Shown here in pieces: positions 2,386-50,399 of a DNA stretch of 54,380 nucleotides (the first letter of the stretch is position 1; the number at the start of each line of letters is the position of its first letter). The stretch covers positions 558,001 to 612,380 of the forward strand of contig JBEWZL010000232.1 of the NCBI GenBank assembly GCA_045837725.1, given 5' to 3'. Made by a program: the position numbers and the translations under genes. Below the pieces are notes generated by a model that was not told the DNA's origin, searched no databases, and saw only the letters and a program-made list of their open reading frames with translations. This DNA comes from Vermamoeba vermiformis. Lineage: Eukaryota.

Positions 2386-5300
2386 ATGGAGGAGCAGCAA
2401 CTCTACTTCGATAATTTGCCAACAGAGGCATTGTTTAGCTTCTTTTGTACATTAGATCCTTCCCTGCTTGGTAACGTAATTGATTCCAGTAAAATCTTAT
2501 GGTTATAATTTAAGGCGTAAAACATCAAAAAAATGCGCACCATTAAAATAGAAATATTATAATTAATTCAAAATATTTTAGGAACGTACAGCACGGTTTG
2601 CAAAAAATGGGCACAGATGTGCAGAGACAACGAGCTGTGGAGGCAGTATTGCATCGAAAGATGGGACAAAAATCCAAAAGAATCAGATTGTGCAAAGAAC
2701 TGGCTTATTCCTGTTCGTGAAGGCGGTAAGAGGAGATGTCATTTCGCCTATCAAATTTTGAATAACATTAAATAGGCGGCTCCAAAGAAAATCGAATAGA
2801 TTGGAGGAGATGTTATTTGCTACGGTAAGTAATATGTCAACTAATTGACGCTGTGTCTTATTTCAGTTTGCCAGATCGTTCCATGATAAGGGCGCGAAAT
2901 TCTTTCAACTCGTTCCTGAAAAGAAACAACGACTCGGATTCTTAAAAAGAAAAAACAACAAAAAATTGCAAGCAAACGGCAACGATTTGTTCGCGAAAGG
3001 TTGGCCCGTCATTGACGATCTTGCCAGATTCGAAAAGAAGGTCCAAACTGCTATTACAAAAATAGAATTAGAAGAAGATACTGAACCCCATGATATGCCT
3101 GATTATGTGGCACTTATGGATCTTTTTTTGGAGTTGGAGCTGTTAATCTTGCGTCAGATCAACATCTCGCGGATCAAGTTTCTCGGATGTGCTGGCAGAT
3201 TTTTAGAATACGTAGCTCCGTTATTGAGGAACTTTCCAAATTATGTTCCTTCAAGGTAATTACCTCTGAATTCTCGTAAGCCTGATCCGTTTTTAATCCT
3301 TCCCTGTAGACTTGCTAGTTTTGCTGCTCAATTTTCCAAATTAGCGGCAGAAAAAGATATTCCAACTGAAGTGTCTCTCCGGCTAATGGAACAAGTTGCT
3401 CTTATATACATCGACTTAATCAGCAACGTTATCTTGCCGACTGATTTTACAGCGTCGCTTACTCACTTTATCTCCGTAATTATTTCAATTATCGCACGCA
3501 TCCTGCAAGATTCAATTGTAAGTGTTGCTATTAGCATTAGTATTAAACTTGACAAGTTTAATACTAATAACGACCATTTAGAAACAATGGGCCAACGAAG
3601 ACTGTAACGAACGGCCGGTTTCAGTTTCACCAACGCAAGAGTTTGAAGCGATCCTGCACAGTCTTAGCTTGGCGTTAGGTACAAATTTTATATAATGCTT
3701 ACAATCGATTTTTCTAATCAATTTGAATAGAAAATAAGCAGGACCTTGGAATGCAACTGTTTCTTGTTGCCACGCAAATGGTACTTGACCAATCAGGAGT
3801 ACAAAACACGAGCTCCGTAATCTTGCCTGTAGCAGTGTTAGCTGCTGTTGCGAGAGGTTTTGCTGGTCACATCGGAAGCAACTCCAAAAAGTTCATGGAG
3901 AAGTACGACAAAAACTCGATGAACGTTGTCAATTGTCTTATATTGTTATTATAGCCACATCTTGCCTTTTTGGAAGCCCAGCACTGACGCCGAGTACTTA
4001 GTGCCAGCGTTGTATTATTTTTCTCAACTGTTAAGCGAAGTTGGTGAAACGGTAAGTCCGCTTTTGATAACACAATGTAAGTCTTAATAATCCCTGGTAG
4101 AGTATTCAAACCAACTACGTAGCTGAAATCATTCAACCGCTGCTGACAGTGGCTAAGCACGAAAATCACAAGTAAGGCGTTGCAAAGATGACACTTTTTA
4201 TTCACAATTTTTAACTTTGTGGATCTAGTGTGCAGCGTGAAGTCGCCGATTTTGTCATTGGTTATTGCTCGAACTTGCTCAATAAGGAAGTGCTAGTGCC
4301 CTATTTAAACGATCTGTTGGATATCATGTACGGCTACTGCGGCAGCAAGAACGTGTCTGTTCGTAAGGAGGCTGTCATCGCCATCAGTTCGCTCATTATC
4401 ACGTGCCAGACTGTATTCGCAAAGGTACATGGCTATACTAATCGATGTTACCCTGACACTTTAATACAGCATAAAGATCGTATCATGACGGAGTTCAAAA
4501 AGTTGCTGGCAAACGGCGATGCATCTGATCGCAAGTCAGTCATCGAAGCACTATCCAGAATTGGAGCTGGTATTGGAGATCAAAAATCAAGCATTGAAGC
4601 AGACATTGAAGTGCTGTACGATCAAGTCGTTGAAGACTGCAAGAGAGATCGAGATGCGTACATTGATTTGTTGTTGAAAATGACCGAGTTTGGTATCGTT
4701 GCGCTCGGTCCCAAGTTTGCAAAGCACATACCCTTCGTGTTTCCTTTGCTCATCGAAAATGCAAGACTGCAAGAGATCGAACGAAGGGATACGGAAGAAG
4801 AAGAACAACAATCTCAAGGTGGGAGAGAAGCAATCATTAAACTGCAATTATTAGTGATTAACTAATTTGTTGGTAGCGGCAGATCTCATGGACGTGGAAG
4901 AAGGTGACGATGACGAAGACGCTGAGACGCCTCCAGACGTTGTAAGATTATATTACTTGACCTACGATAAACTAATTAGTCAATTTCAGCACATCTCCGG
5001 ACAAGCTATTGGCCGCAAAGACTCAGCATTAGCGTCGCTGCTCCAAATCATCAACACGTTTGACCGTGCAGCATTCTTGGCCGTTCACGAAGAAATTTGT
5101 GCAGCACTTCAATACACATTAGCACATCAGCTGCAGAACACTGCCAGTAAGATATTACTAACCACCAATCATTGAATTGTAACATTATTCACTCTTGCCT
5201 TATTTAGAAACCCTCAGATTTGCTCGCGAGATCTTTACGGAATACATCCGAAAGTTGTTCACGAAAGGCGATCCAGAATGGTGCAAGTCTGACCGCATGT

Positions 5301-6769
5301 GGGTGTACTGGCTGAATAGCGCCAATATGTTCATTGAATATATGGAGGACTCCAATTCTGTTCAGCTTAACGTGCAATGCGTCTTTAGCATTAATCAGGT
5401 AATTAAGTCACCGTCATGATGATTTGCTAGTATACATATTATGACATTTACATCACAAACTATACTGATGTCAGTACTCCCGAGCAACCGTTCTTGACCG
5501 AACAGCTTATGGAACACTTTACTGAGGTGGTGTTTAGTTCATTGTGCGGCCAATACTACCAAGCCGAAGAAGAACGAATTCCTTTTGAAGAGATTTACGA
5601 CCTCGGATCTGAAGTAAGTACTATTGAAAAACGAAATTTTTGCGACTTAAATTATTAATTATATTACGCAGATTATTGATCTAATGGAGTCCATGTGCAT
5701 CGCAAACAAGGACAAAGAATCATTTTGGAAGTTTGGCGATGCAGTTTTGGGAGAGATTCCGATGGTGTTCGAAGTCAACGGCATCGATCAGTACCGCTGG
5801 TTCGATGTTTGTCTCATTTGCACAGTCTTCGATCATTTTGGCTATGAGTTTGCGGAAGGTGACAGAGTAAGTCTTGAAAACAATCACTCGATTTAGTAGC
5901 CTAGCTTAATAATGAACCCTTTTTTTTTTGTGACAGATTACCCTGCTGAACCTGGTCGTCGAATGTCGTGGCATTCAAACGAAAGAAATGTACCAATGCC
6001 TCGCCAATCACATAGGTACTCATTCATAATCATTTATATTCACTAAGTATATCATTGACTGAATGGTTCTTTGACAGGTGTCATGGCCAGAAAATTCCCC
6101 GAGCTTCTTCCGAAACAAACCAATAATATCGATCGTAAGAGCCTTCATTTTAATGAGATGTATCACTAATCTATTGTTATTATAGACCTCTGCAACTACG
6201 TGGTGCATTTGTTGATTGGTGACAACTGTCAAAGAGAAGCAGCTCCAGGTGCTTATGACAATGCATTGAGTACGTCCCCAACTAATAATCGCATAATTTT
6301 TTACTAATCACCTTTTTGTATAATATTTGTTACTAATTACTGTTTTAGTGGCCCTGAGTTGTCTCGTATTCCATACGGCAGCACTTTACGAGAGATCGAC
6401 GGACGCTACGCACCGTGCAATACTTCGTGAACGTCTTGTGACGCACATGACTAATTTGACAAGCGCATTGCCCCCTGCTGCTGTGGACGGTGATAAGATT
6501 GAAGCCGATATTTGCATTGATTATTACTGCCAGACCTTGGCAAAGTATGCACCATTAATTTTATTTTGTTAACCAAACCTCGGCCCAAACAATCGTACTA
6601 ACGCCTTGTCTGTTGTAATAGGACGCAAGTGTATTTCGAAGGTGAGGATGGTGCAGCGCTCAAGAACGATGTGATTCGTGCGTTGAAAGAATCGATGGAA
6701 ATGCCCGATTATAATCACCCTGATACGCACAAAATAGTCGATCCTTTGTTAAAACTGTTACAAGCGTAA
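2386..6769 (+). CDS. F-box + importin-beta(4/5)-like HEAT-repeat protein, copy B; multi-exon
   Basis: Exons 2386-2470 and 2582-2726 splice to FDNLPTEALFSFFCTLDPSLLGTYSTVCKKWAQMCRDNELWRQYCIERW, a clear F-box. Later exons give VRKEAVIAISSL, EALSRIGAGIG, LGPKFAKHIPFVFPLL, an acidic loop EEGDDDED and AYDNALS. Ends DPLLKLLQA* at 6767-6769. Confidence 0.72.
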
Positions 6770-7016: not shown

Positions 7017-9695
7017 TTATTTGAAAGATATTTGCTGCTTAAATTCCTCGATCCAAGGCTGCACATGGAACAAATTTACACTACGCAGCTTTTTCTGCAA
7101 GACGGAAGCAGGTGCTAAGCGCATCAATGTCTCGCGGATCTTGATTAAAGTCGGGTTAGTCCACTGTCCAATCTTCGACTGTTGATAAGACTCGTTTGCG
7201 ATCTTGGTGGTGTGTGGATGTCGCGTTTTAAAGTACTGGTAAAACGCTTCTTGATGACCGTCCTTTTCATAATGGTAGTATTTTGCCAATAAATTCGACA
7301 ATACAAATACGTCTTCAATAGACATATTGGCTCCTATTGTACAATAAAAATTAGTGAGCTGAAAATTGCGAATCCGATCGGATGTGCTTTACCTTGCCCC
7401 ATGTTCGGTGTGACAGGATGTGCAGCATCACCCACTAGTACTACTCGCTCGCTGCACCATTTGTTCGATGGAATTCGATCAAGAATTGGATGCACGTACA
7501 AGGAAGACGGATCCGTGCTTTGGAAGAGCAGGTTGAGCGGATGTGGCCAGCTTGAAGGTGCATTTGGATTGGGCTCGGGCGTAGGCGACTTGACTTTAAT
7601 CCACCAAAATCCTTTCGATTGCGTCTGGTCGATTAAGCCCCATGAAGCTCTAATTCCATCACCGTAGAAAATAGTCATCGCCGCTGGTTTCCTTCTTTCA
7701 TTTTCCAAAAATAACGATGAAATTTCGCTGTTTGATTTCAAATCGCATACGCCTCGATAACAGAGCTCACCACAATATCTGCTAGCTTCGTCGACTTCAC
7801 CTTTCGCGGATCTGATAATGTTTCGGCAAAGCGAGTTGATGCCGTCAGCTCCGACGACTATTCTTCCTCGAATCATCTTCTTTTCGTCATTATTGTTATT
7901 TGCAGGTGTGTTGTAGATGATGTAGTCGGAGTATTTAGACTTTGGTTTTTCGACCGTGGATTCGAGGTGAACTGTGACGCCAGTAGCATCTTCTTCGATA
8001 TTTTCGATCTTTGTAGAGTACCTATAAAATTGAGGCATTAATATCGTCACTCTTCGAAAACCTGGCGGATCTAGATCCCGCAAAAAAAATTCAAATTTTT
8101 GGGGCTTACATTATTCGCGAGGGATCAACCAAGCCGTGCAAGACGTCCATAAGCTCTTGTCGCCCAATTAATCTGAAACATTCGCCGGTTCCCTTGACCA
8201 CTTGATTCATGTCCACTAACTTCATCACGTCTTCTTTTTTGCCCTCGTGCACTGATTGGTCGTGCAGTTTGGTCATGTAAACTCGGCGCACAGGGTACGA
8301 CTTGGTTCGCCAGAATGAATCGGGAATGCCTAGTGCTTGTAGTATCTTTATGCTTGAAGGCCAAAGACCCAGATCCGCTCCGTCTTCGTGGGACTCTTTC
8401 GACTTCTTTTCTACGATGATGAACGGAATGCCTAGTCTTTGCAAACATGCAGCCAGTACCAAGCCAGAGACGCCACCGCCGGCAATAATAACTTGATCTT
8501 TTTCTTCAAAACTGCGTTCTTGGTTTTGTTTCGGGTATAAAATGAACGGTGGGGGAGACTTGCCTAGCAACACGTTGTAAATGTAGGGATAAATGACCAA
8601 GCAGCGTAGTTGAAAATCGAGCGAGAAGATATGTCCAAATATGGAAGGCGCTGTAAAGATCTCTCGTACGAAGCAGTCAACAAATATCACGACCAATGGG
8701 AGCGGAGCGTGCTTCAGTGAACGGAAGACCAAGTGATTGATGTGGTAGGGTCTGTCAGCGGCCAATAAATCACGTGATATCGATAGACCAGGCACAGCGG
8801 TCACGAGCACACCAATGAGTGTCCAAATGTCGACCGGATCTGACGGACTGCGCCAAAAATAGATCACGATGCTGCTGAGGTAGGCCAATACCATCGTCAC
8901 CGCGTGCAATCTGGCAGTTCTTTTGTCGCCCAAAATGACCGGCAAAGTGATCTTGCCAGCCAGCCAATCAGATCTTCTGTCTGCCATGTTCAGCACCAAA
9001 AACAGCGCAAATTTCACGAGTGCGGCAGGCACGACCAACATGGCCAATCTGGGCAGGTAGAAGTACAAGTTCCACGGGAAAGACGGCGTCTCGTAGATGA
9101 TAGTTGAGGCCAATACGGCTGCAAAGTAGGGCAGTAAGACGTTCATGACCAGTGCCGCGCTCAATTCGCCGAGTGCGCGGTGGTTGAATCTGAACGGGAT
9201 ACCGCTGTACTGCGTGGCTAAAAATACCATGCAATAGCCCACTAAGTGAACCTTTGCCGGGAGGACGAACTTCAATGTGGCTAATGATAATACACAGCAC
9301 GACCAACCGAGAATTAGGCACCTAAAGAGACTCGTGTCAGATCCGTCAAAAAAAATTCCAGTAAAATTCTAAAATAAAGGTAAGAATATTCTTAATTACC
9401 TCTTGGGACTATAACCGTTATCTACTAATACTCTACTGCCTCCAGTAAATGGGGAGCCTTGTTTGTTGAGTTGATCTGCTTTGAAGTCGTAATACTCGCC
9501 CAAGAAGTGCGCTGATAACTGACATAATAATACAAAAATCCATCCATATAAAAATTGAGAAATATTTAACGTATCGCTGTGATCATAGTGCATTTCCAAT
9601 GAGTAGGCAACGCTGTAAGTGACTGCTGAAAATACGGTCATCTTCAGACGGCCTAATTTGACCAATAAATTAAGCTCTCGTTTAAGGAGCTCCAT
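7017..9695 (-). CDS. UbiA/MenA-like membrane prenyltransferase fused to a group A FAD-dependent monooxygenase; about 4 exons
   Basis: UbiA motifs HFLGEYYDFKADQLN..GGSRVLV and LNMADRRSDWLAGKITLPVILG plus many TM segments. The same uninterrupted ORF (8106-9275) continues into IIAGGGVSGLVLA...VEK, and later exons give VVGADGINS and LVGDAAHPVTPNMGQG. Confidence 0.85.
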
Positions 9696-39122: not shown

Positions 39123-42100
39123 ATGGCCCATCGTCAGCTACTCGTGCTTCTCGTAGCTGTTTTCGCGTGCTACGCGACTGCTCAAACTTGTACTGCACCA
39201 GGTACATTGATCGATTATCACTCGTTGGTTCGTTTTCTAATTGAGTTTCATTTAGACTCGCAGTTGTACGTGTTCCCGTACTCTTCTTCTGCCGGCGGTT
39301 ATGTCAGTAAGTATTTAGCTCTACTATTGTCGCAAACGGTAGTAATAATTCCAATTGCTCAGATCAACCCATGGCACAACTCAACGTCAATGCTACTGTG
39401 CGCATGGTCTACTACTCGAATTATACTTGGGTCGTAACTCAAATCCCCAGTGGATTGACCTACACCGTACTTTCGGATAAGATGGGCATTTCCATTACTG
39501 GTACTCCCGTCAGAGCTGGTACCTATACCATGAACGTCAATCTCTTTTACTATGGTAAGCGGGTTTATTGTTCGGAATAATAATGTCTAAATTATCGTGT
39601 ATCGCAGATAACGCTGCCAATAGACTGCGATGCTCGACTCAACCAATCAATTTCAACTTCCAGTGCAGCGTTCCAATTACTCTTACTCCTACTGAAGAGC
39701 AAGGTGTTAAAGGTACGGTAACTCTAACAGCGGAAGAACTCTTCGTGACCAAGTTTAACTTATTGCTATTTTAGGAACTGCGTATAGTCCCGCTAACGTG
39801 CAGTTTGTCGCTTCCGGTGGCTTTGGCTCTGGCTACTCATTTAGTGCCAAGTAAGTTATATTTGATCTGATACGTATCAAGCGTAATTTCTAATCAAATT
39901 AAAAAATAGCTTCGCAAATCCCAAGAACGGAGTCAACTTGACTTCTTCTGGTGCGCTCGTTGGCACATGGAGTGCTCCCACATCGTTTAGCTTTTACTTG
40001 AACGTCGTCGACGATGGTAATTGCGAAGCTACTTTCTCCTACACGTAAGTTCCGAAGCGAACCAAAATTAAACCGAAATTCAAATTGATAATATTTCCTT
40101 CTAAAGCGTCACCGTGTCTTGCCCTGATATTAATATCGCTCCTCTCTCCGGAATTATGCCTTCTGGCGTAACTACCGACTACTACAACTCCTCTTTGACC
40201 TCATCCGGCGGTCTTGCTCCCTACACTTACTTTATTACCGAAGTTTCTCTTCCTAATGGCTTGACATTTGCCAATGATGGTACTGTCTATGGTACTCCTG
40301 CAGGTGCTACGACTACGACCTTCTTTGCCAACGTCGAAGGTAAGTCGCTTCAATTGGAAAATCGGATCAATTTGTTGAAATTTATTTTTCATGAATAGAT
40401 GTAAACAACTGCCCTGGTTCTGGCGAGTTTAGCTTGGAAATCAAGTGTGCTACCATTACTTTGGGTGCTATTAACGGCTCAACTTTGGTGGACAAGGATT
40501 ACTCCAGCACCGTCGTTGCTTCGGGCGGCAGTTCTCCGTACACCTACTCACTCGATGGCTTAAAGAGATCCACTCTTGCTAATGGTCAACTGCCTCCTGG
40601 CATGTCGCTTGATGGCTCTACTGGTGTAATTTCCGGCAAGCCCACTGCCACTGGATCGTATCAATTTTCAATCCTTGCAACCGACGCTAAAGGTAAGAGC
40701 AGCTTGCTTATAATTACTCGTGTATAAAGCTAATTCGCTGTTGTAGGTTGCACGCAATCAAAGTCCTACACCATTCAAGTGTCATGCGATGACTTGGCTA
40801 TCCAAGACATTGCCGTCACCGGCGTTGCTGCAAGTTCCTACTACGCATCTTTGAGCACAGTTCGCGGATCTAGCCCATACAGTTATACAAGTAAGTTTAA
40901 AAAGCTAGCGTTGAAGATCCGGATCTAATCTTAAACATTAAGCTGCCGACACTTTGGCTAAAGATCTCGTGCTCAGTTCACAAGGAATTTTGTCGGGTGA
41001 ACTTAAACAAACCGGAATCTTTACTTTCACCGTTACATCGACCGATTTGAGATCGTGCCAAGGTAAGCTCCTAAGATCTAATCAACTTTCTTTGCTAACT
41101 TTATTCAGCTACTCGCCAGTTTACATTCAACATTACTTGCCCTACTCTTATTCTCTCGAGCTTGATTACTAACAACGGTCAAGGTAACACTTAATTCGAA
41201 TTTTATTTGATAAGGTATCTAACTTGTTTAATATCAACAGCCAGCAAGTATTACTCTTCGTACGTTCTCCCTGACGACGGCGTTGGTCCTTACACTCTTG
41301 TCTCGGTGTCTGGTCTCCCTAACGGAATTGAAAATGACGGCCAGAACTTCAACTTCGCTGGTACTCCTACTGAAATTGGTCTCTTCAATGTGACTATCAC
41401 CGCTGCTGATAGCAACGACTGCATGAACACCTTCTCCATGCCCTTGAATATTACTTGCGCTACATTTGTGTTTAGCGGCATTGATTCTGGTGCCACCGTC
41501 GATAGAAGTTACTCGGATCAGTTCGCAGTTACTAGCGGCTTCATCGGCGCAACGTCCTTTGTCGGTAAGTTTGAACAATTAATGGCTCTCAGAGAATATT
41601 TCTAACGCGATTCTCATAGTGGCTAACGGAACTTTGCCTCGTGGATTATCACTTGCCACCGACGGTACCCTGAGTGGTACTCCTACACAGAAAGGAGACT
41701 TCACCTTCACTGTCCGAGCTACTGACGCCAACGGTTGCACCGGTGAATACGATCAACAACTGTCCGTCGATTGTGCTGACAGCGAGCTTAGCGTCAATCC
41801 TTCATTGGAATCTGTAAGTTGCACAATTAACTGACTCTATTGTACCGATGACTGACTTTGCGAAAGGGTCAAACTGGTGTTTTCTACATTGATTCATTCA
41901 CCGCCTCTGGCTCTTCTCATCATCCTTACACGTACTCAATTACGCCTGCTTCGTCTGTCAATGCACAACTCCCTTACGGAGTACAAAAGCAAGTTGTCAA
42001 GCCTGATCTTCGAGGATGGACACAATGCTATTCCGGTACTTACGCTGCTGGTATGGGCGAAATCGAATTCGAAACCATTCTTGAGTGTGCCATAACGACC

Positions 42101-44059
42101 GAGGCCAAATATATGATGCTCGCCTGCGGTACTAGCGCCGACAACTTCTACAATATGGCAGCCGGTCCAATTGAGGACGTCTTTTTAATCGAAGGTACCA
42201 AGATCAGCAATGGTGTCACCTGGTACTGGCTTACCGAGGATACCGATCATTGGGCTTGGGGCTTTGCTGACGGCAGTGTGCAGCCTGCACAAATTCAATG
42301 CGATGATGCTGCAGGTGATAAACGCACCTGCTGGTATGTTGACTTCGTTGGAGAGCCTCGCACGGGATACCGTTGCGGCGACATGACTGGTCTCGATGGT
42401 AATGAGTGGTATCGTTACGTCTATGTTGCTAGCGAAATCCCTACAATCCCTCTGGACACCGTAGAAACTTATTCGTTGATGTCAAACGGAACTATTTCTG
42501 GTATGCACTTGCTTGGTTCCAGTTGCAATCCAACTAATCCGTTACAATTAGGTCTTCCAACTATTTCTGGCGATCTTGGCTTCATTGTCACGGCGACTGA
42601 TGACGCAGGCTGCTCTGCTTCAGCTTCTGGAATTCTCCACGTATGTAACTTACTCTATTTTGAAACCACCGATTAACACGTTGTTAGATCGATTGCGGTA
42701 GATTCTACGTCGAAGACCTTCCCGGAGCGCAAGTTACAATCTTGTACTCTCAAAGCTTGAACATTAGCGGTGGTTCTGGATCATACAGCGCGATCATTAG
42801 TAAGTATCACTCGACTAGTTTACTAATACATTCGATTTTAACGCGTTGTTTTATAGCTGGTTTGCCCCAAGGACTCACCTACAATACGACAGCCAATGTT
42901 CTTAGCGGCACACCTGTTACCCACGGTGAAGTACGTATTCTAATCCTGTGCTAAAAAGAATCACGGCTAACTGCTTGTTTAGTATCCTATTGTCATTGAA
43001 ATCACCGACAATATCAACCCTTGCAATTACACGGTGCGCGTCACTTTCGTTGTTTTGTGCCCTCCCAACAACTTGTCCGACATTCCTCCTGTTGCTCAAG
43101 TCGGCACTACTTACCTCGCTACGATCTCGTACAAGAACATGTTGCCGCCTGTTCACTTCCAAGCCGAGACCTTGCTTCCTTACGGCTTGACCCTCTACCG
43201 CGACGGAACTATCGAAGGTGTTCCTTCTCTCCCTGGAAACTACGAGTTCTTCGTCAGATTGATCCAAGACGTTGAAAATGGCTGCTCTGATGGACGCTGG
43301 TACAGCATTTCAGTCGTCTGCGGACCTATCGACGTTAGCGACATTAGCAACAACTTCATTCTCGGCGACTCTGTCGACGAATCCTTTGGTTCAAGCAACG
43401 GTATCCAACAGTACGCTTACACTTTGGGCTCTGGTCAACTCCCCGATGGATTGACTTTGAGTATTGATGGTAGTCTCAACGGCACCGTCACCAAGGCTGG
43501 ATTCTTCAGATTCTCTGTACGTGTCACTGACACCTATGGTTGCGTTGGTGAGCGCCGTTTCGTCGTGGCCGTCACTTGCACCAATCCCATTGCTCTCGGT
43601 CCTTTGCCAACTAGCTTCATGGCCGGCGAACAAGTCTCCATGGCTCCAGTAACTCTTGGTGGAGTCGCTCCTTATTCCTTCCAACTCTTGCTCGGTGCTT
43701 TGCCTCGTGGTCTTGTACTGAGCACCGACGGAGGCATTGCTGGAAATCTAACTTCGGCGGGTACTTTCGTCTTCCAGTTGGGCGTCACGGATAGCCAAGG
43801 CTGCGTCGCCACCGAATTGTACACTATAACGGTCACTCCTCAACCTCCAGTTGATGCTCCAGTCTCAACTGGCAATACACCCGTATCGACTCCTGTTGCC
43901 GCTCCGATTGAACCCCCTGTCGCGCCAATTCAAGCCCCTGTTCAACCCCCTGTTCAAGCCCCCACTAATTCGCCTGGCGCTGTTTCCGGACAGTCTTCAC
44001 TTCGTAGTGCGATCGCAACCATCCTTCCTGTGTGCCTAATCGTGCTCATTTCCATGTAA
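39123..44059 (+). CDS. Large surface protein: signal peptide, about 12 He_PIG (putative Ig/cadherin-like) repeats, inserted Cys/Trp domain, Pro-rich stalk, GPI-type tail; many introns
   Basis: Repeated GG..PYTY....LP.GL.L...G.ISG.PT..G.F.F.V.ATD..GC units; signal MAHRQLLVLLVAVFACYATA; PVQPPVQAP stalk; hydrophobic C-terminus. Confidence 0.88.
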
Positions 44060-44399: not shown

Positions 44400-46360
44400 G
44401 TGCTCAAAATAATCACGAAAAAATCGCTAATCATTGATACAGGTCAATTAATTACTGTCGATAAGCCTCCTACAAAACAACAATACAACAGAGGCCAAAG
44501 CAATTTTTGGTTTGACAAACAAAATAATTCGATTCGTTTTCGAGAAGGACAGAAGAAAGACAAATCAATTCAAGTCGAATTTCAAAACGAAAAATATCAA
44601 TACGAAGGAATAATATCGTCAAATATTTATGAGATTATTGTTCGCACGAGCATCTTTTCTTTGTTGTTTGGCAACTCATCTCGACACGTTGCAGTGACAG
44701 AAGAATCTCTTCGTCTTCCCTTTGAACAACAGCCGTGGTTTATTGGTGCCGTTGATAAAAAAGATGTCAAGAAGCTCGAACAAGGTACGTCATCGGTAAT
44801 CTGTCGAATTAGAGATCTAACACAGACGCAGCTCAGACACGCATGTTTTTCACGCGTGCAAAAGGACCCAAAGTCTATCTTCATTGGACGAGAACAAAAT
44901 CAACGACGGACACAGAAGGTCCAATACTTCTCGAGTCAAATGACTTGTCTCTCGTACTGCCTCGCGGTGAATTCATCACTGCAAGGCACAATGGGGGAGT
45001 GGTCAAGCATCGCAATGAAGTTCTTTTCTGTCGCCGAATCATGGAAAACGACTTGGAAGGAGCTAAAGTCATGCTAGAGCAAGGTATTTTCATTGTATGT
45101 CCATACAAACAGGAGCTCTAAGTGACACGAGTCACCATTTTTTAATGACAGGTGTCAATCTTAAATGCCCTTTTCTACACGAACCAAACCTCCTAACGTA
45201 CTACATCGAGCACACTCCTCAACGACTACAGAGCGATGAACTAATAATATGGTTATTAAAGTTGAATGGTGGTGTCTTCATTGACTAGTACGTTATTAAC
45301 CTTGCTCGCTCAGCTTCTATTGTAAATGTGGCTAACGTGTTTTACCAGCGAAGACAAAGCACTCATCAACGTGGTAGCGTCAAGATGTTCTGATCACGTG
45401 ATTGAAGCGTTTCTCGAGCACGGAGTCCCGAACAATCCGAGTGTCACGAAAAGAGCAATATCGCGCAAGATTCCACCGCACAGACTGCGCATCTACTTCA
45501 AGACCCTTAGTATTACTTGCGGGTCATCTAAATACAATTATTCAAATGAGTATTTGGAGAGCATCAAAGACTATAAAGATGGCTCAGATTGCACCAATCG
45601 AGTTCTCATCACCTGTGCCTGGCAGTTCGGCAATGATGACAATTTGTTCAAACAACTGCCGATAGAACTACTGCAACATATCATTAGCTTTGGAGTTGAC
45701 GATGAATATCCATGGCTTGATTACGTGGATCCACCTGACGTGGTTCAATTCGTATATCAGCCTGTTCAAGTACTGTTGAAGCTAGCTGTTATTGTGTGGC
45801 ACTACAGACACGAGCCAAATGGAAAATACAACGTAGAATGCATTTTAGATCGTCTGATCGATAAAGGGTTATCTGGGTCAATCTACAACAACTTGACACC
45901 AAGCCAAATGAAGACGCTCGTGTCGTGGATCATCACTTTGTCAACACTCTGTCAACCTAAAAAATACACGCTTTTGAAGTCTGGGTTCATGAAGTATTTA
46001 ACTACCAATCACCACTCAGTACCGCACATCAAATCATTATTAGACTCAGGCACCTTCAATCGAGAGTGGTGGATTGAGCCTGGTGATACAGGAGCTGGTT
46101 TAGTGCCAGTACCAACACCCCTCTCTTGGAGTGTGATCAATCCTGAAAAACTACACAAATCATTGATTGCACTGCTCATCCACGAGAATTTGTTGCCTGA
46201 ACAGTGTGTGCTTGATGGTGAAATTCTGCTTCTGAAGGAGTATCTAGAAATGTTCCACAGTGACAGCAGCAATGTTAGAGCAACAATTGCATTCATTGAA
46301 GAGTGCAGGAGTGCATCAAAAACCGGTACCAGCAGATATTCAAAACTGAGGAAAAGATAA
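44400..46360 (+). CDS. Hypothetical protein with degenerate SH2-like, ankyrin-like and F-box-like (LPIELLQHIISF) segments; start uncertain
   Basis: Spliceable ORFs 44400-44783, about 44830-45083, 45152-45288 and 45349-46360. Motifs PWFIGAV..FFTR, NDLEGAKVMLEQG and LFKQLPIELLQHIISF. Confidence 0.5.
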
Positions 46361-46705
46361 CCAGTGCACCCATGGAACAACAAAGGACCTGTCACAGGTT
46401 TGAACATTCCCATAGTAAGCCATCACAAGCTTTGGAATTAAGCAGAAGTCATTCTCTGCTGGTGAAAAAAAATAAAAATTTCTGACTAAGTTTTTTGATG
46501 GGACAGTGCAAGATTTAATATTAGGTTATCCTACTTTCCTAGGAATAGGATTTAAGGTGTCCCACCCCAGGCCAAATTAGGCGTCCTTCGAAATTCGTCA
46601 ACAAAATTCAAAATTCATATATGTAAAAGGGCTTGGCCATATAGGGCTAGCCCTGCAGAACCTGACAATAAATAGAGATTTGGAAGGAATTTTGCTTAGT
46701 GATTT

Positions 46706-46767
46706 TTTTACTTAGGAAAATTTTTACTTAGGAAAATTTTACTAAAGGAAATTTTTACTGTAGAAAA
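46706..46767 (+). repeat. Four ~15-16-bp direct repeats, consensus TTTTACTTAGGAAAA
   Basis: Copies at 46706, 46722, 46737 and 46753; the last two are degenerate. Confidence 0.85.
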
Positions 46768-46833
46768 ACTGACCCACCAGCGTAAGTTGGAGAATTTGAA
46801 AAAACTAAGTCTGGACAGTCTTATGAAAAATCG

Positions 46834-47162
46834 AAGTCCTTAGGGGTCGTCTCCACGCGGAGACGATCTACCCAAAAAAAAACCCGAAGTCCGCAAGGGT
46901 CGTCTCCGCGTGGAGACGATCTCGCAAAAATACCAAGTCCAAAGGGGTCGTCTCCACGTGGAGACGATCTCAAAAAAAACAAAGTCCAAAGGGGTCGTCT
47001 CCACGTGGAGACGACCTACCTAAAAAAATTAAAGTCCGCAAGGGTCGTCTCCACGCGGAGACGATCTCGCAAAAAAACAAAGTCCAAAGGGGTCGTCTCC
47101 ACGTGGAGACGATCTCAAAAAACACAAACGAAGTCCATAGGGGGTCGCGATCTCGCGAAAAA
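46834..47162. repeat. Tandem array of seven 47-53-bp units, each AAGTCC-N-GGG-[20-bp palindrome TCGTCTCCACGTGGAGACGA]-A-tract
   Basis: Units start at 46834, 46887, 46935, 46982, 47032, 47080 and 47131. Palindromes at 46847, 46900, 46948, 46995, 47045 and 47093; the seventh is degenerate. Confidence 0.97.
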
Positions 47163-47513
47163 AACAAGGTAACGTAGCGACGCGATGCAAAGTTTATCTG
47201 CAACAGTAAATGTTAATAAATTATTGTATTAATCTAACTAATAAAACCAGCACTTACCAATTTTAAAATTAGGAGCGAATGTTGTTAAATCGTTGATCGG
47301 TTCTAAAATACAAGATTAGCATTAATAAATAAACATAAATTAAATTTAATCTCAATGCAAACCGCCGCGAATATGTAAATGATCGGAACCAATTTTGTAT
47401 CCGGATTCAAAAATAAATAAAAAATTAAAATTACACTTACTATTAGCGCCAAGTCGTGTTGCTTTCGTTATTCGTGAATAAATAATACCAAGCCGGCACG
47501 AACAACTTGACCT

Positions 47514-47563
47514 GTCACGTCAAGTGATTCGTCACGTGATATGTCACGTGGGTTGTTCACGAA
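47514..47563. promoter_or_regulatory. Cluster of GTCACGTG-type (E-box) motifs upstream of the first orphan gene
   Basis: GTCACGTC at 47514, GTCACGTGA at 47531, GTCACGTGG at 47543 and TTCACGAA at 47556, about 300 bp before ATG 47834. Confidence 0.5.
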
Positions 47564-47833
47564 AAACAGAAAACAAACTTTTTGTAATTTACACGGTGCT
47601 AAAAACAATAGCGTGTCACCACAAGTGGCGCGTTTTGTTAAATATAATTGCGATACGAATCCAACAGATTCTATTGCAATTTAAAGTTTAGATCGTCGAT
47701 CAAAAATCGGCGCATCTAAATTATCTGCTAAGCCTCCAAAAGAGGCTTAATTTTATATCTATATATCGAATCATCGCCTATAAATTCCGTTAGTAAAACG
47801 GAATATTACAAGACAAATTTAGATTCGATCAGA

Positions 47834-50399
47834 ATGGTAAATATTATTTAAAATTTCAACCTTAGTTTAGTGACACAAATAATTAAAAACAAGTTTTTAT
47901 ATATCGTATTTTATTTTATTAGTATTTTTACAGTGCTAATGCTTTTTATAGAACAAGTCCAAGACATCGACCTTGGATTCTATCAGAACTTACGTGACGT
48001 TCTTCGTCCTTGCTCGCAACCGTTTGGCACCAGGCGGAAGTACGGAAGCCTACGTCACCAAGTTGCACGACAGCCTGCAGTACTTTGGCACGTTTGGCCG
48101 CAGAGCAGATTTCGTCTTTTTCTACGTCCTGTTTGATTTTCATGGAATGCTGCCCTCGCTCCCAGACCGCACTCCCGTCTATCCAACGTGGTACAAGACT
48201 TACCGCCAGACACTCGCCGATACACTTGGAATTGCTATTGGCGCAAATCCGACATGGCAAGAATTTTCCGAGTTCATGCAAGGTTTTCCAGTGTTTCTGG
48301 AACTTGCTCAACGAGAAATCTGCATGTGGAACGTAACGAAGAATATCGCGAACAATGTCAAAGAAGAAAACGACCGAATTCACGAAGAACACGCAAAACT
48401 TTGGAGAGCGATGCGCTACAACCTGAAACACTGGTCGTCCCTCACAGCTTTGCGTGCGCTTCTGACATTCATTGGCTCTGCTGAATGTCAGTATGGCGTG
48501 CCGTTGTTCTCGCAGTACACTTCCTACGATACAAAGCCCGCAAACGGTAAGTCAAATTCGGATCCATTTGTAACGGTCACTAATAGTTCGTAACTTAGGT
48601 GCTCAGAGTTCTACAACAACAACAACTGTACCCGATCAATTCAAATTTGTAGAGATTGGCTTTATTCCGGGCTGCACAGGAGTAGGCTACGAGTGGTTTC
48701 ATCTGCCTGAGTTCAATTCACGCCCTGGTGTATTTGGACACTACAAGCGTAGAGGAGAAGAACTTCCGCCCACTAACACCAAGAAGAGGCGTATCGAAGC
48801 CGTCCCCGAAGCCGCCCCCGAAGCCGTCTCTGAACTAGAAATTGGAGGCAACAGTCCTACAGGGAGCGTTGACTTGTTCTTACTCGAGTCAAACGACAAC
48901 CCTGAGCCGTCTCAAAGCCCTGTACGCAGTCCAGACTTTAACAATGAAATGCCCGTGAGTAAAAACGTATAATACACTTAATAATCGTTTAATTGATTCG
49001 TTTTAGAGTTCGCCTTTCCGTCCTCCAACTCCAGATCCGATCATTGCTACAAATACTACTGCGGTTGTTACAAACCCTGCCAAGCATCCGATTGCCGAAG
49101 CAATCCGAATCAGTAAGTCACAAACTGTCAAAATTAACTCAACGGTAACTAATTTTTCTTCAGCTCCTACTGCTAAGGTCCGCGTACCTCGCAGCACGGG
49201 ACTTACCATTGTTGGTCCTCCGGCTGTCTTTGAAGATATCCGCGGAGAGAGGCACAGCCGTCTAAAGGTGGAGGATTGCACGGTGAACCTCTCTGAATTT
49301 GGTACAATCAATTTGGTCGACCAGACCGTGTGCCGTGAGCTGTACCTGAGATGCGTCAACCTGGCCCCAACTGGAACGTCCATGACCGCGGCTGCTGTTA
49401 AATTGTAAGCTTTAGTATTACTAAACCGAACTAATACCAAAATCAGCATACTTCGCCAGCGAGTGCTGTATTTCGAAGACGTAGATTCAGAGCTTGTGGC
49501 GAAGTTGTGTCCTGTGTCTTGCAAGTCTGTCCAAGCCCTGTATATCAAAGACATCTCGAAGCCATTGGTGACTTACGGTTTTGGCAACCATACGTGGCAG
49601 CAGTTAAAATTCCTTCACTTGACACTCTGGCCAGGACAGGCAGTTCAAGTCTTTCAAAAATTGGGCGAATCCGTTGGTCAAGTTCTCAACACCATCTTTA
49701 CCGTGGCCCCTAATCTAATGGGAGTTCGATTGCCCATTGCAAACGAAGATTCGTCGAAAACGGCTTCCTGGGAGATCTCTCTGACAGGTGTCACTTTTCC
49801 TCCGGAATTTCTACTTTTGGAACTGGAATCACACTGCCCTGGAGTCTACATCGACTTGCGCAATTTGAATCAACTCCAGCTTCGTCATCTTTGCCTGGTT
49901 AATATCTTTGTCTCCCCACTCGAGTTTCACGAAGAGGTAGATCCTCGCTGCGTAGATCTTAAAGTTACAGGCCCGAAATTATACATTGGTGGCCGTAACT
50001 TGATTAATACGCTTAGTATTATGCGACACATACTGCAACATCGTCCGTAAGTCTTCCTCCGCAGTTTTGTTAAAGTCAACGCTAATTTATTTATGTAGGT
50101 TCCGCTTTCATCCTCGTGCTCTAGTTCCTCAGCTAATCTATCCCCCCGCATTGTTTTCCATCGAATGGAGTTCTCAAGTGGGTGCTCAAGTTCATGGGAA
50201 ATACTACATGGTCAGCTCAGATTTTGAATTGGCCACGACCTACGGTCCCTTCTTCTACCCTGCCATAATACCGCCCGATAACAAGCTCACTGAGAGCCAG
50301 CGCCAAGACATACCCATTCCCGACTCAGTAATCTCGGCTCAAGACGAGGAAACCATTGACGAAGTTTTGGCGGAACATTTTAGCAATTTTAGTTTGTAA
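47834..50399 (+). CDS. Orphan gene 1 of the putative element: helical N-terminal domain, KKRR NLS-like motif, Leu-rich C-terminal region; about 6 exons
   Basis: ATG|GT at 47834 splices in frame to 47952. Donors near 48547, 48955, 49405 and 50046 link ORFs 47973-48593, 49463-50050 and 50067-50399. Confidence 0.6.

Follow-up and report, generated by a model that had tools for sequence, protein, structure and literature searches.

A tandem array of palindrome-bearing 48-bp units with a duplicated three-unit block in Vermamoeba vermiformis DNA, possibly shaped by DNA-level processes

Contig JBEWZL010000232.1 of the Vermamoeba vermiformis assembly GCA_045837725.1 carries, between two predicted genes, a compact array of short palindromes whose layout and surroundings we describe in this study. 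We analysed 54,380 nucleotides (nt) of this contig (positions 558,001 to 612,380 of the forward strand, hereafter the window, from whose first base all coordinates are counted), which are cellular eukaryotic DNA. At 46826–47168 lies a direct tandem repeat made of six head-to-tail units (46826–47122) and a degenerate seventh, each of the six bearing a palindrome of the form TCGTCTCC-N4-GGAGACGA with arms of 8 + 8 base pairs (bp). The parts of a unit follow one another as an A-run, AAGTCC, three or four variable bases, GGG(G), the palindrome, TCT, a variable tail and a further A-run. AAGTCC and GGG are invariant in seven of seven units, the degenerate one included, and stand at a near-fixed distance from the palindrome.

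A pattern search for the 20-mer TCGTCTCCACGTGGAGACGA with at most one mismatch returned six matches, at 46847, 46900, 46948, 46995, 47045 and 47093 (three perfect and three with a single change), and none in 100 dinucleotide shuffles. Tandem Repeats Finder (TRF) reported, over 46826–47128, a 48-bp period in 6.2 copies and a 145-bp period in 2.1 copies (88% matches), and a repeat search recovered six 55-nt copies with start-to-start distances of 53, 48, 47, 50 and 48 together with two 107-nt copies that are 92% identical and spaced by 145. Units 1–3 and units 4–6 form a higher-order duplicate of 145–148 bp. The first-pass annotation, made from the letters and a list of open reading frames (ORFs), had described six near-perfect palindromes and one degenerate copy, AAGTCC..GGG before each and an A-run after it, a period of 47–53 bp and a duplication of the first three units in the next three, and this description proved accurate in all particulars that could be checked.

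The first half of the duplicate, block A (46826–46973, + strand), comprises units 1–3 starting at 46826, 46879 and 46927, with palindromes at 46847–46866 (centre ACGC), 46900–46919 (GCGT) and 46948–46967 (perfect, ACGT). Block B (46974–47122, + strand) comprises units 4–6 starting at 46974, 47024 and 47072, with palindromes at 46995–47014 (perfect), 47045–47064 (centre ACGC) and 47093–47112 (perfect), the one in unit 4 extending to 24 bp (46993–47016). Both blocks were delimited by TRF, the pattern and repeat searches and a block alignment. At the right edge, unit 7 (47123–47168, + strand), read directly, retains AAGTCC and the G-run, while its palindrome has lost the central 14 bp and is reduced to TCG abutting CGA, followed by TCTCGCG; its DNA fold is weak (z = −1.9). 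At the left edge, also by direct reading, a decayed copy (unit 0; 46799–46825, + strand) consists of an A-run and CTAAGTCT without a palindrome, its segment AAAAAACTAAGTCT at 46799–46812 sharing 12 of 14 bases with the unit start AAAAAACAAAGTCC in a count made by eye. The array is decayed at both edges, and its last growth was the duplication of the three-unit block. It has the hallmarks by which minisatellites are recognized, namely head-to-tail units of 10–100 bp above chance, a higher-order period and decayed edges. A coding repeat was rejected, as the unit lengths break the reading frame between units, and translation of the open frame that runs through the array gave no protein relative among 267 candidates.

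Variation within the array is unevenly spread. Between blocks A and B, none of 48 arm columns differ, compared with 3 of 12 columns in the 4-nt centres and 13 of 88 in the linkers, gaps included (arms versus linkers, Fisher p = 0.004), which bears out the earlier remark that the palindrome is conserved as the linkers drift, here to a divergence of about 15%. All three single changes in the palindromes fall in the central four nucleotides, which read ACGC in units 1 and 5 and GCGT in unit 2; the centres of unit 2 and its higher-order counterpart, unit 5, differ at two positions and are exact reverse complements of each other. CACGTG stands at the centre of three of the six units, the others having CACGCG or CGCGTG. 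The arms being invariant across units, no stem pair shows a compensatory change.

The sequencing runs that contain the stretch include water metagenomes, and two DNA runs of a single sample, X1 and X2, may be the source of the window. Comparing their contigs over a 3.4-kilobase (kb) stretch that includes the array, we placed 204 contigs from X1 and 105 from X2, 85 and 47 of which are only 95–99% alike to it. In each run three clean contigs account for the left 1.2 kb, and nearly all of the contigs placed fall on the rest, from about 46520 onwards. Small shares of the stretch in runs of other organisms (X5–X20) were left out of the comparison. Summed contig depth, which does not equal copy number, was in X1 60–93 over the flank, 621 at 46554–46667, 219–248 over the array, where the six internal copies account for part of the rise, and 114–281 over 47238–48149.

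Loose ends of these contigs carry units in which AAGTCC and the palindrome are joined by a linker foreign to all seven units of the window, and one unit with a decayed right arm. A 5-nt centre with one extra G occurs in two contigs of X1 and four of X2. The other copies again vary mostly in the centre. Contigs exit the array after 47078 into two different continuations, and 15-nt samples of three loose-end sequences were searched for in the window and not found there. One contig joint goes back 96 bp, which would indicate a different unit order in another copy, and a low-depth joint leads from 46869 to 46825 (one sample, short contigs). Because variant units exist and contigs continue from the array into sequence that the window lacks, we take the unit to belong to a dispersed repeat family with copies elsewhere in this genome, some of the variants being perhaps alleles. 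The first-pass annotation had named, as what would speak against its own interpretation, a dispersed minisatellite without a consistent link to the neighbouring genes; the variant units and other continuations in X1 and X2 bear out the first half of that description. The arms also contain CGTCTC, which we take to be the site of a type IIS enzyme; a Golden-Gate-type cloning artefact was rejected on account of the diverged linkers, the higher-order structure and the variant copies in independent contigs.

We consider the array best explained as a minisatellite, or an array derived from a transposable element, that is kept palindromic by hairpin processes at the DNA level and has no dedicated function for the neighbouring genes, a reading to which we assign slightly less than an even chance. 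We favour repeated DNA because of the decayed edges, the once-duplicated block, the sister copies elsewhere and the other short repeats in the neighbourhood (described below). The array would have grown by unequal exchange or replication slippage, and its palindromes would fold into hairpins or cruciforms when replication exposes them as single-stranded DNA. Template switching from arm to arm would then keep a palindrome perfect and sometimes invert its 4-nt spacer, and hairpin-mediated deletion would remove palindrome centres, as in unit 7. We infer template switching from four traits of the palindromes: arms without differences, a spacer that changes freely, an inverted spacer in one of two sister units, and the loss of one palindrome's interior. 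The conserved arms would accordingly reflect DNA-level homogenization and recent common descent and not service to the neighbouring genes, any protein binding being secondary.

These steps have counterparts in the literature. PMC8604942 describes template switching between inverted-repeat arms as homogenizing the arms and inverting spacers, and PMC7202029 treats quasipalindromes as template-switch hotspots; for the family of repeats (FR) of Epstein–Barr virus (EBV), palindrome-induced deletion by slipped mispairing is invoked in PMC3218044. The identical arms, the inverted spacer of units 2 and 5 and the centre-deleted palindrome all resemble quasipalindrome mutagenesis (PMC8604942, PMC7202029), which, unlike the array, is a mutational process and not an element. 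As to its class, the array most likely belongs with higher-order minisatellites or transposon-internal arrays in general. It shares with minisatellites the head-to-tail units of about 48 bp, the duplicated three-unit block, the decayed edges and the occurrence of variant units, and possibly of other unit orders, in the same sample, and it differs from them in that its units carry a 20-bp palindrome whose arms are invariant as the linkers diverge by about 15%. Unlike arrays of non-autonomous transposons, it is accompanied by no transposon ends or genes that we could identify within the window.

Several observations nevertheless weigh against this explanation. Template switching accounts for each perfect palindrome, but not for the identity of all six or for the conservation of AAGTCC. 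Acting alone, it should fix some arm mutations on both arms, so that variant perfect palindromes would be expected; none was seen, and the arms are identical in all six units, where about seven changes would be expected in 48 columns at the linker rate. AAGTCC and GGG are not palindromic, and their invariance throughout the array is not explicable by hairpin processes, which points to sequence-level constraint or to very uneven mutation. Furthermore, the dispersal is read from short contigs of one sample, and some of the variants could be alleles rather than other loci.

These points lend some weight to a rival explanation, that of the first-pass annotation, in which the array is a series of iterated symmetric sites, with TCGTCTCC and GGAGACGA as half-sites, for a dimeric DNA-binding protein that possibly also contacts the AAGTCC box. 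Six such sites 47–53 bp apart would jointly serve the downstream gene or genes as an enhancer, a silencer, an insulator or a tethering element, and the binder would be a host factor or the repeat family's own protein. Arguing for it are the significant excess of linker over arm changes without any compensated arm variant, the invariance of AAGTCC and GGG, the common orientation of all units and the seven + strand ORFs that follow them, a layout of direct units with a symmetric 8 + 8-bp core and A-rich spacers reminiscent of the EBV FR and the baculovirus homologous regions (hrs), and a downstream product that ends in a basic stretch resembling a nuclear localization signal. The centre, however, differs in three of the six units, and the 5-nt centre of other copies shifts the spacing and phase of the half-sites; a centre so free in sequence and length is not what a rigid dimer site or an E-box would be expected to tolerate. 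CACGTG has been lost from three of the six units, decayed palindromes occur among the other copies in the reads, no neighbouring ORF has a DNA-binding domain and the half-site was not found elsewhere in the window, other intergenic regions included. We regard binding sites as rather unlikely overall; the idea keeps the standing it has because all six pairs of arms are identical and AAGTCC is conserved outside any inverted repeat. The layout and arm conservation put forward for dimeric-protein sites have stood, whereas the absence of a mirror array and of viral or transposase domains, the freedom of the centre and the dispersal go against them, and the earlier interpretation is to that extent partly supported, in form and not in substance.

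Searches beyond this organism turned up nothing related. In viral contigs the palindrome occurred at no locus, and in metagenome contigs it had seven single matches, all in DNA of 61–73% GC and without unit context, which are chance occurrences. A longer unit pattern gave 94 single matches in 596 gigabases (Gb) of prokaryotic genomes, against a chance expectation of about 69, and a further 4 in viral contigs; among 98 stored loci of this pattern none had the palindrome, and one had three half-sites. In the literature searched, the exact palindrome was not found, the matches to the 12-mer being unrelated primers in four papers.

In strain B95-8 the EBV FR has 29 copies of a 30-bp unit, each holding a 12-bp palindromic core to which EBNA1 binds (PMC3218044). 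It shares with the array the direct repeats, the palindromic core and the AT-rich remainder, and the same source describes its copy number as variable and deletion-prone. Yet the FR lies in a viral episome and has a dimeric binder in EBNA1, whereas the array has six copies of 48-bp units with a 20-bp core, lies in a cellular, intron-bearing context and has a spacer that varies in both sequence and length. Baculovirus hrs occur at seven places in a genome, serve as enhancer and origin, and consist of three to eight units of 64 bp, with a 24-bp imperfect palindrome in each (PMC4535591). They are likewise direct, palindromic and dispersed, compared with six to seven units of about 48 bp and a 20-bp palindrome here; unlike them (viral elements that bind IE-1 and act as enhancers and origins), the array has no viral genes nearby. 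The array is not a member of either family.

Clusters of E-boxes (CACGTG, recognized by factors of the basic helix–loop–helix (bHLH) type) offer another comparison, given the CACGTG centre of three of the six units and two further copies at 47533 and 47545. They differ from the array in that the other three units lack CACGTG, 5-nt-centre variants exist and conservation resides in the outer 8 + 8 bp and not in the core. An E-box enhancer cluster was rejected, the core being conserved in only three of six units and the other copies including the 5-nt-centre variant.

A further reading, a hairpin-array RNA, was the second proposal of the first-pass annotation. On this reading transcribed stems would be processed to small RNAs or be structured within a 5′ leader, and a possible GT donor at 47169 and AG acceptor at 47933 would splice the array, as a 5′ exon, to the downstream gene; these splice-like signals, read directly, flank the stretch between array and gene. 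Variation is confined to what would be the loop, of which a 5-nt variant is tolerated, and the + strand folds at −166.4 kcal/mol (z = −14.6 against shuffles). The − strand, however, folds about equally well (−163.5 kcal/mol, z = −12.0), as both strands of any array of identical palindromes must, the minimum-energy fold mostly pairs neighbouring units instead of forming single hairpins, and no pair has a compensatory change. The earlier claim that G·U pairs extend the stems holds on the + strand, where G–T and G–C pairs lengthen the stem from 8 to 12 pairs for a gain of 0.4 kcal/mol in DNA folds, and fails on the other strand. Rfam gave no match at the gathering score anywhere in the window (the best sub-threshold match reached 31 bits against 99), and the window contains no tRNA genes. 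Among the indexed runs containing the stretch no RNA run is listed; two RNA sequencing (RNA-seq) runs bearing the same species label each gave one partly fitting read over the 3.4 kb, and as the flanking genes are equally bare, these runs argue neither for nor against expression of the array. With both strands folding alike and Rfam silent at its gathering score, the hairpin-array RNA found no specific support, and we judge it very improbable. An intrinsic terminator or RNA polymerase III unit was rejected as well, there being no supporting promoter or family match.

The genes in the window are those of cellular eukaryotic DNA. Pfam searches identified stop-to-stop ORFs with UbiA, FAD-binding, RGS, short-chain dehydrogenase, phosphodiesterase and He_PIG domains, and found no transposase, integrase, reverse-transcriptase or viral domain among the 26 ORFs of at least 150 residues, no mobility-gene domain in nine further queries at E ≤ 1 and no DNA-binding domain in any neighbouring ORF. 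Introns in the window are 47–52 nt long and of the spliceosomal type, and one of 47 nt (GTAAGT...TTTTAG) joins two phosphodiesterase ORFs in frame; CpG dinucleotides are not depleted (observed/expected 1.15). The best named relatives of the dehydrogenase are amoebozoan, blastoclad and chytrid fungal, red algal and plasmodiophorid proteins at 42–58% identity. The gene upstream of the array is a 344-residue ORF without a Pfam family (45326–46360, + strand), covered in each DNA run by three clean contigs at the summed depth of the flank, and its stop codon lies 466 bp from the array. Downstream, the long exon of the next gene has an open frame from 47952 to 48546 (+ strand), beginning about 780 bp from the array and ending at a GT donor at 48547. 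A 52-nt GTAAGT...TTAG intron separates it from the next exon (48599–48969, + strand), which is homologous to the C-terminal part of a relative, P0001. The next seven ORFs of at least 100 residues on the + strand follow the array, and five further ORFs downstream, all on the + strand, have no Pfam families. Three flanking ORFs had no relative in viral contigs. Each arm occurs six times in the window, every time inside the array; with half-sites confined in this way, the motif is not a general promoter element across the roughly 25 genes present.

Other short repeats surround the array, which thus lies in a repeat-rich intergenic stretch. About 60 bp upstream, at 46705–46768 (+ strand), the 16-bp unit TTTTTACTTAGGAAAA is repeated four times in tandem (TRF, 79% matches); this repeat doubles as a loose 35-nt palindrome and is independent of the array. 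Further left, a segment at 46554–46667, which contains the 12-bp palindrome AGGGCTAGCCCT (46643–46654), has its summed depth raised about ninefold (621 against 69–93 in X1, 4152 against 280–500 in X2) and is probably another dispersed short repeat. Sequence like it is what contigs run into where they depart from other copies of this region, after 47078 and after 48383, which suggests a small mobile repeat inserted at different points of paralogous copies. One contig of X2 matches the window up to 46522 and then runs into unlike sequence, and a contig of X1, from the same sample, continues as the window does; the point 46522/46523, immediately left of the repeat-rich stretch, may mark either a structural polymorphism or the boundary of a paralogue. 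To the right of the array, TRF and a motif search located a cluster of three ACGT-core motifs at 47517–47550 (12-bp period, 2.8 copies), made up of CACGTG at both 47533 and 47545 together with one TCACGTGA. This cluster, some 400 bp before the long exon of the downstream gene, may be the real promoter element.

That same boundary bears on a further explanation, in which the array is the subterminal repeat array of a large mobile element of Foldback, Mutator or CACTA-like type that carries the downstream genes without Pfam families and has its mirror array beyond the end of the window, more than 7.2 kb away; the palindromes would be the binding sites of its transposase. The X2 contig that departs from the window at 46522, where X1 does not, would mark a possible presence/absence boundary about 300 bp left of the array; the raised summed depth over 46554–48149 and an apparently frameshifted paralogue in the downstream gene family (P0002) would suit such an element too. 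The boundary is, however, seen in a single contig, the downstream genes contain introns and have the appearance of ordinary cellular genes, and the 26 ORFs include none with a transposase, integrase or reverse-transcriptase domain. The first-pass annotation had proposed looking for a mirror array at the far end of the element; the window contains neither a mirror array nor a terminal inverted repeat nor any inverted copy of the array or its flanks. We consider a large mobile element improbable. Least credible of all, in our estimation, is that the array is an origin of replication or a partition element that descends from a virus or episome and has become integrated in the chromosome. Although the palindrome and A-tract layout of the units recalls such elements, the neighbouring genes are cellular and intron-bearing, three flanking ORFs lack viral relatives, the palindrome is missing from the viral contigs, where the unit pattern has four single, non-arrayed matches, and the array is the only one in 54 kb.

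The gene downstream of the array has no Pfam family and is, on sequence comparison, a member of a small lineage-restricted family rather than a strict orphan. A word-indexed search returned two relatives, P0001 and P0002, at 55–61% identity, and a profile search of 1.84 billion representatives returned 19 proteins at E ≤ 0.001 (P0001, P0002 and P0123–P0139), of which the 11 scanned showed no Pfam family above the cut-off. The designation of the downstream block as orphan is apt in that it lacks Pfam families, and not for its first gene, which has 19 cluster representatives. In the window, this gene has no in-frame ATG before 48147, whereas its relatives start near the equivalent of 47965, and P0002 follows another reading frame of the same sequence over part of its length, so that it appears to be a frameshifted paralogue. 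Single-base deletions relative to the window, at full depth in both DNA runs, occur at 47573, 47593 and 47595, as well as at 46703 and 47393, and represent either assembly indel errors or strain differences; indel errors of this kind could account for apparent frameshifts, the absent start of the downstream gene among them.

An AlphaFold model of P0001 built on the 19-sequence alignment is all-alpha, with a mean predicted local distance difference test score (pLDDT) of 86 and a predicted template modelling score (pTM) of 0.81; an earlier prediction from a four-sequence alignment reached a pLDDT of 41 and was unusable. Searched with Foldseek against the PDB, the model had no match at E ≤ 0.001, and VIA-align against structural representatives gave a best Z of 3.1, with no chain at Z ≥ 5, a lack of structural matches that does not prove the predicted fold new. 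The C-terminal tail of the downstream product contains two basic clusters about 10 residues apart, resembling what we take to be the consensus of a bipartite nuclear localization signal. The summed depth is raised over the 5′ half of the downstream gene as well, and array and gene may therefore have been copied together.

Because this nuclear-looking, all-alpha protein of a lineage-restricted family adjoins the array, we also entertained the idea that the two form the cis-site and trans-factor of an undescribed selfish or mobile unit. The protein would bind the arms as a dimer, its paralogues would carry arrays of their own and the segment from about 46523 would be a presence/absence insertion; we think of this pairing as a long shot. 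Should arrays regularly stand upstream of the small gene family, they would point to a regulatory or mobility system private to a little-studied protist lineage. Read instead as a minisatellite or transposable-element-derived array maintained by hairpin processes, the locus is chiefly a clear natural case of palindrome behaviour within a tandem repeat, and it may in addition be fragile or cause trouble in assembly.

Three features elsewhere in the window merit mention. A gene-sized segment is duplicated in tandem at 83–1548 and 4463–6020, the copies being about 80% identical at a spacing of about 4.4–4.5 kb. At 7337–9368 (− strand), UbiA prenyltransferase and FAD-dependent monooxygenase domains share one open frame (8109–9368), the remainder of the monooxygenase sitting in the adjoining ORF, and this region may be a fused prenyltransferase–monooxygenase gene. 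Finally, He_PIG (putative Ig) domains recur in a gene, or a cluster of genes, at 40242–44059 (+ strand), where internal 39-nt repeats lie at 40242, 41627 and 43693.

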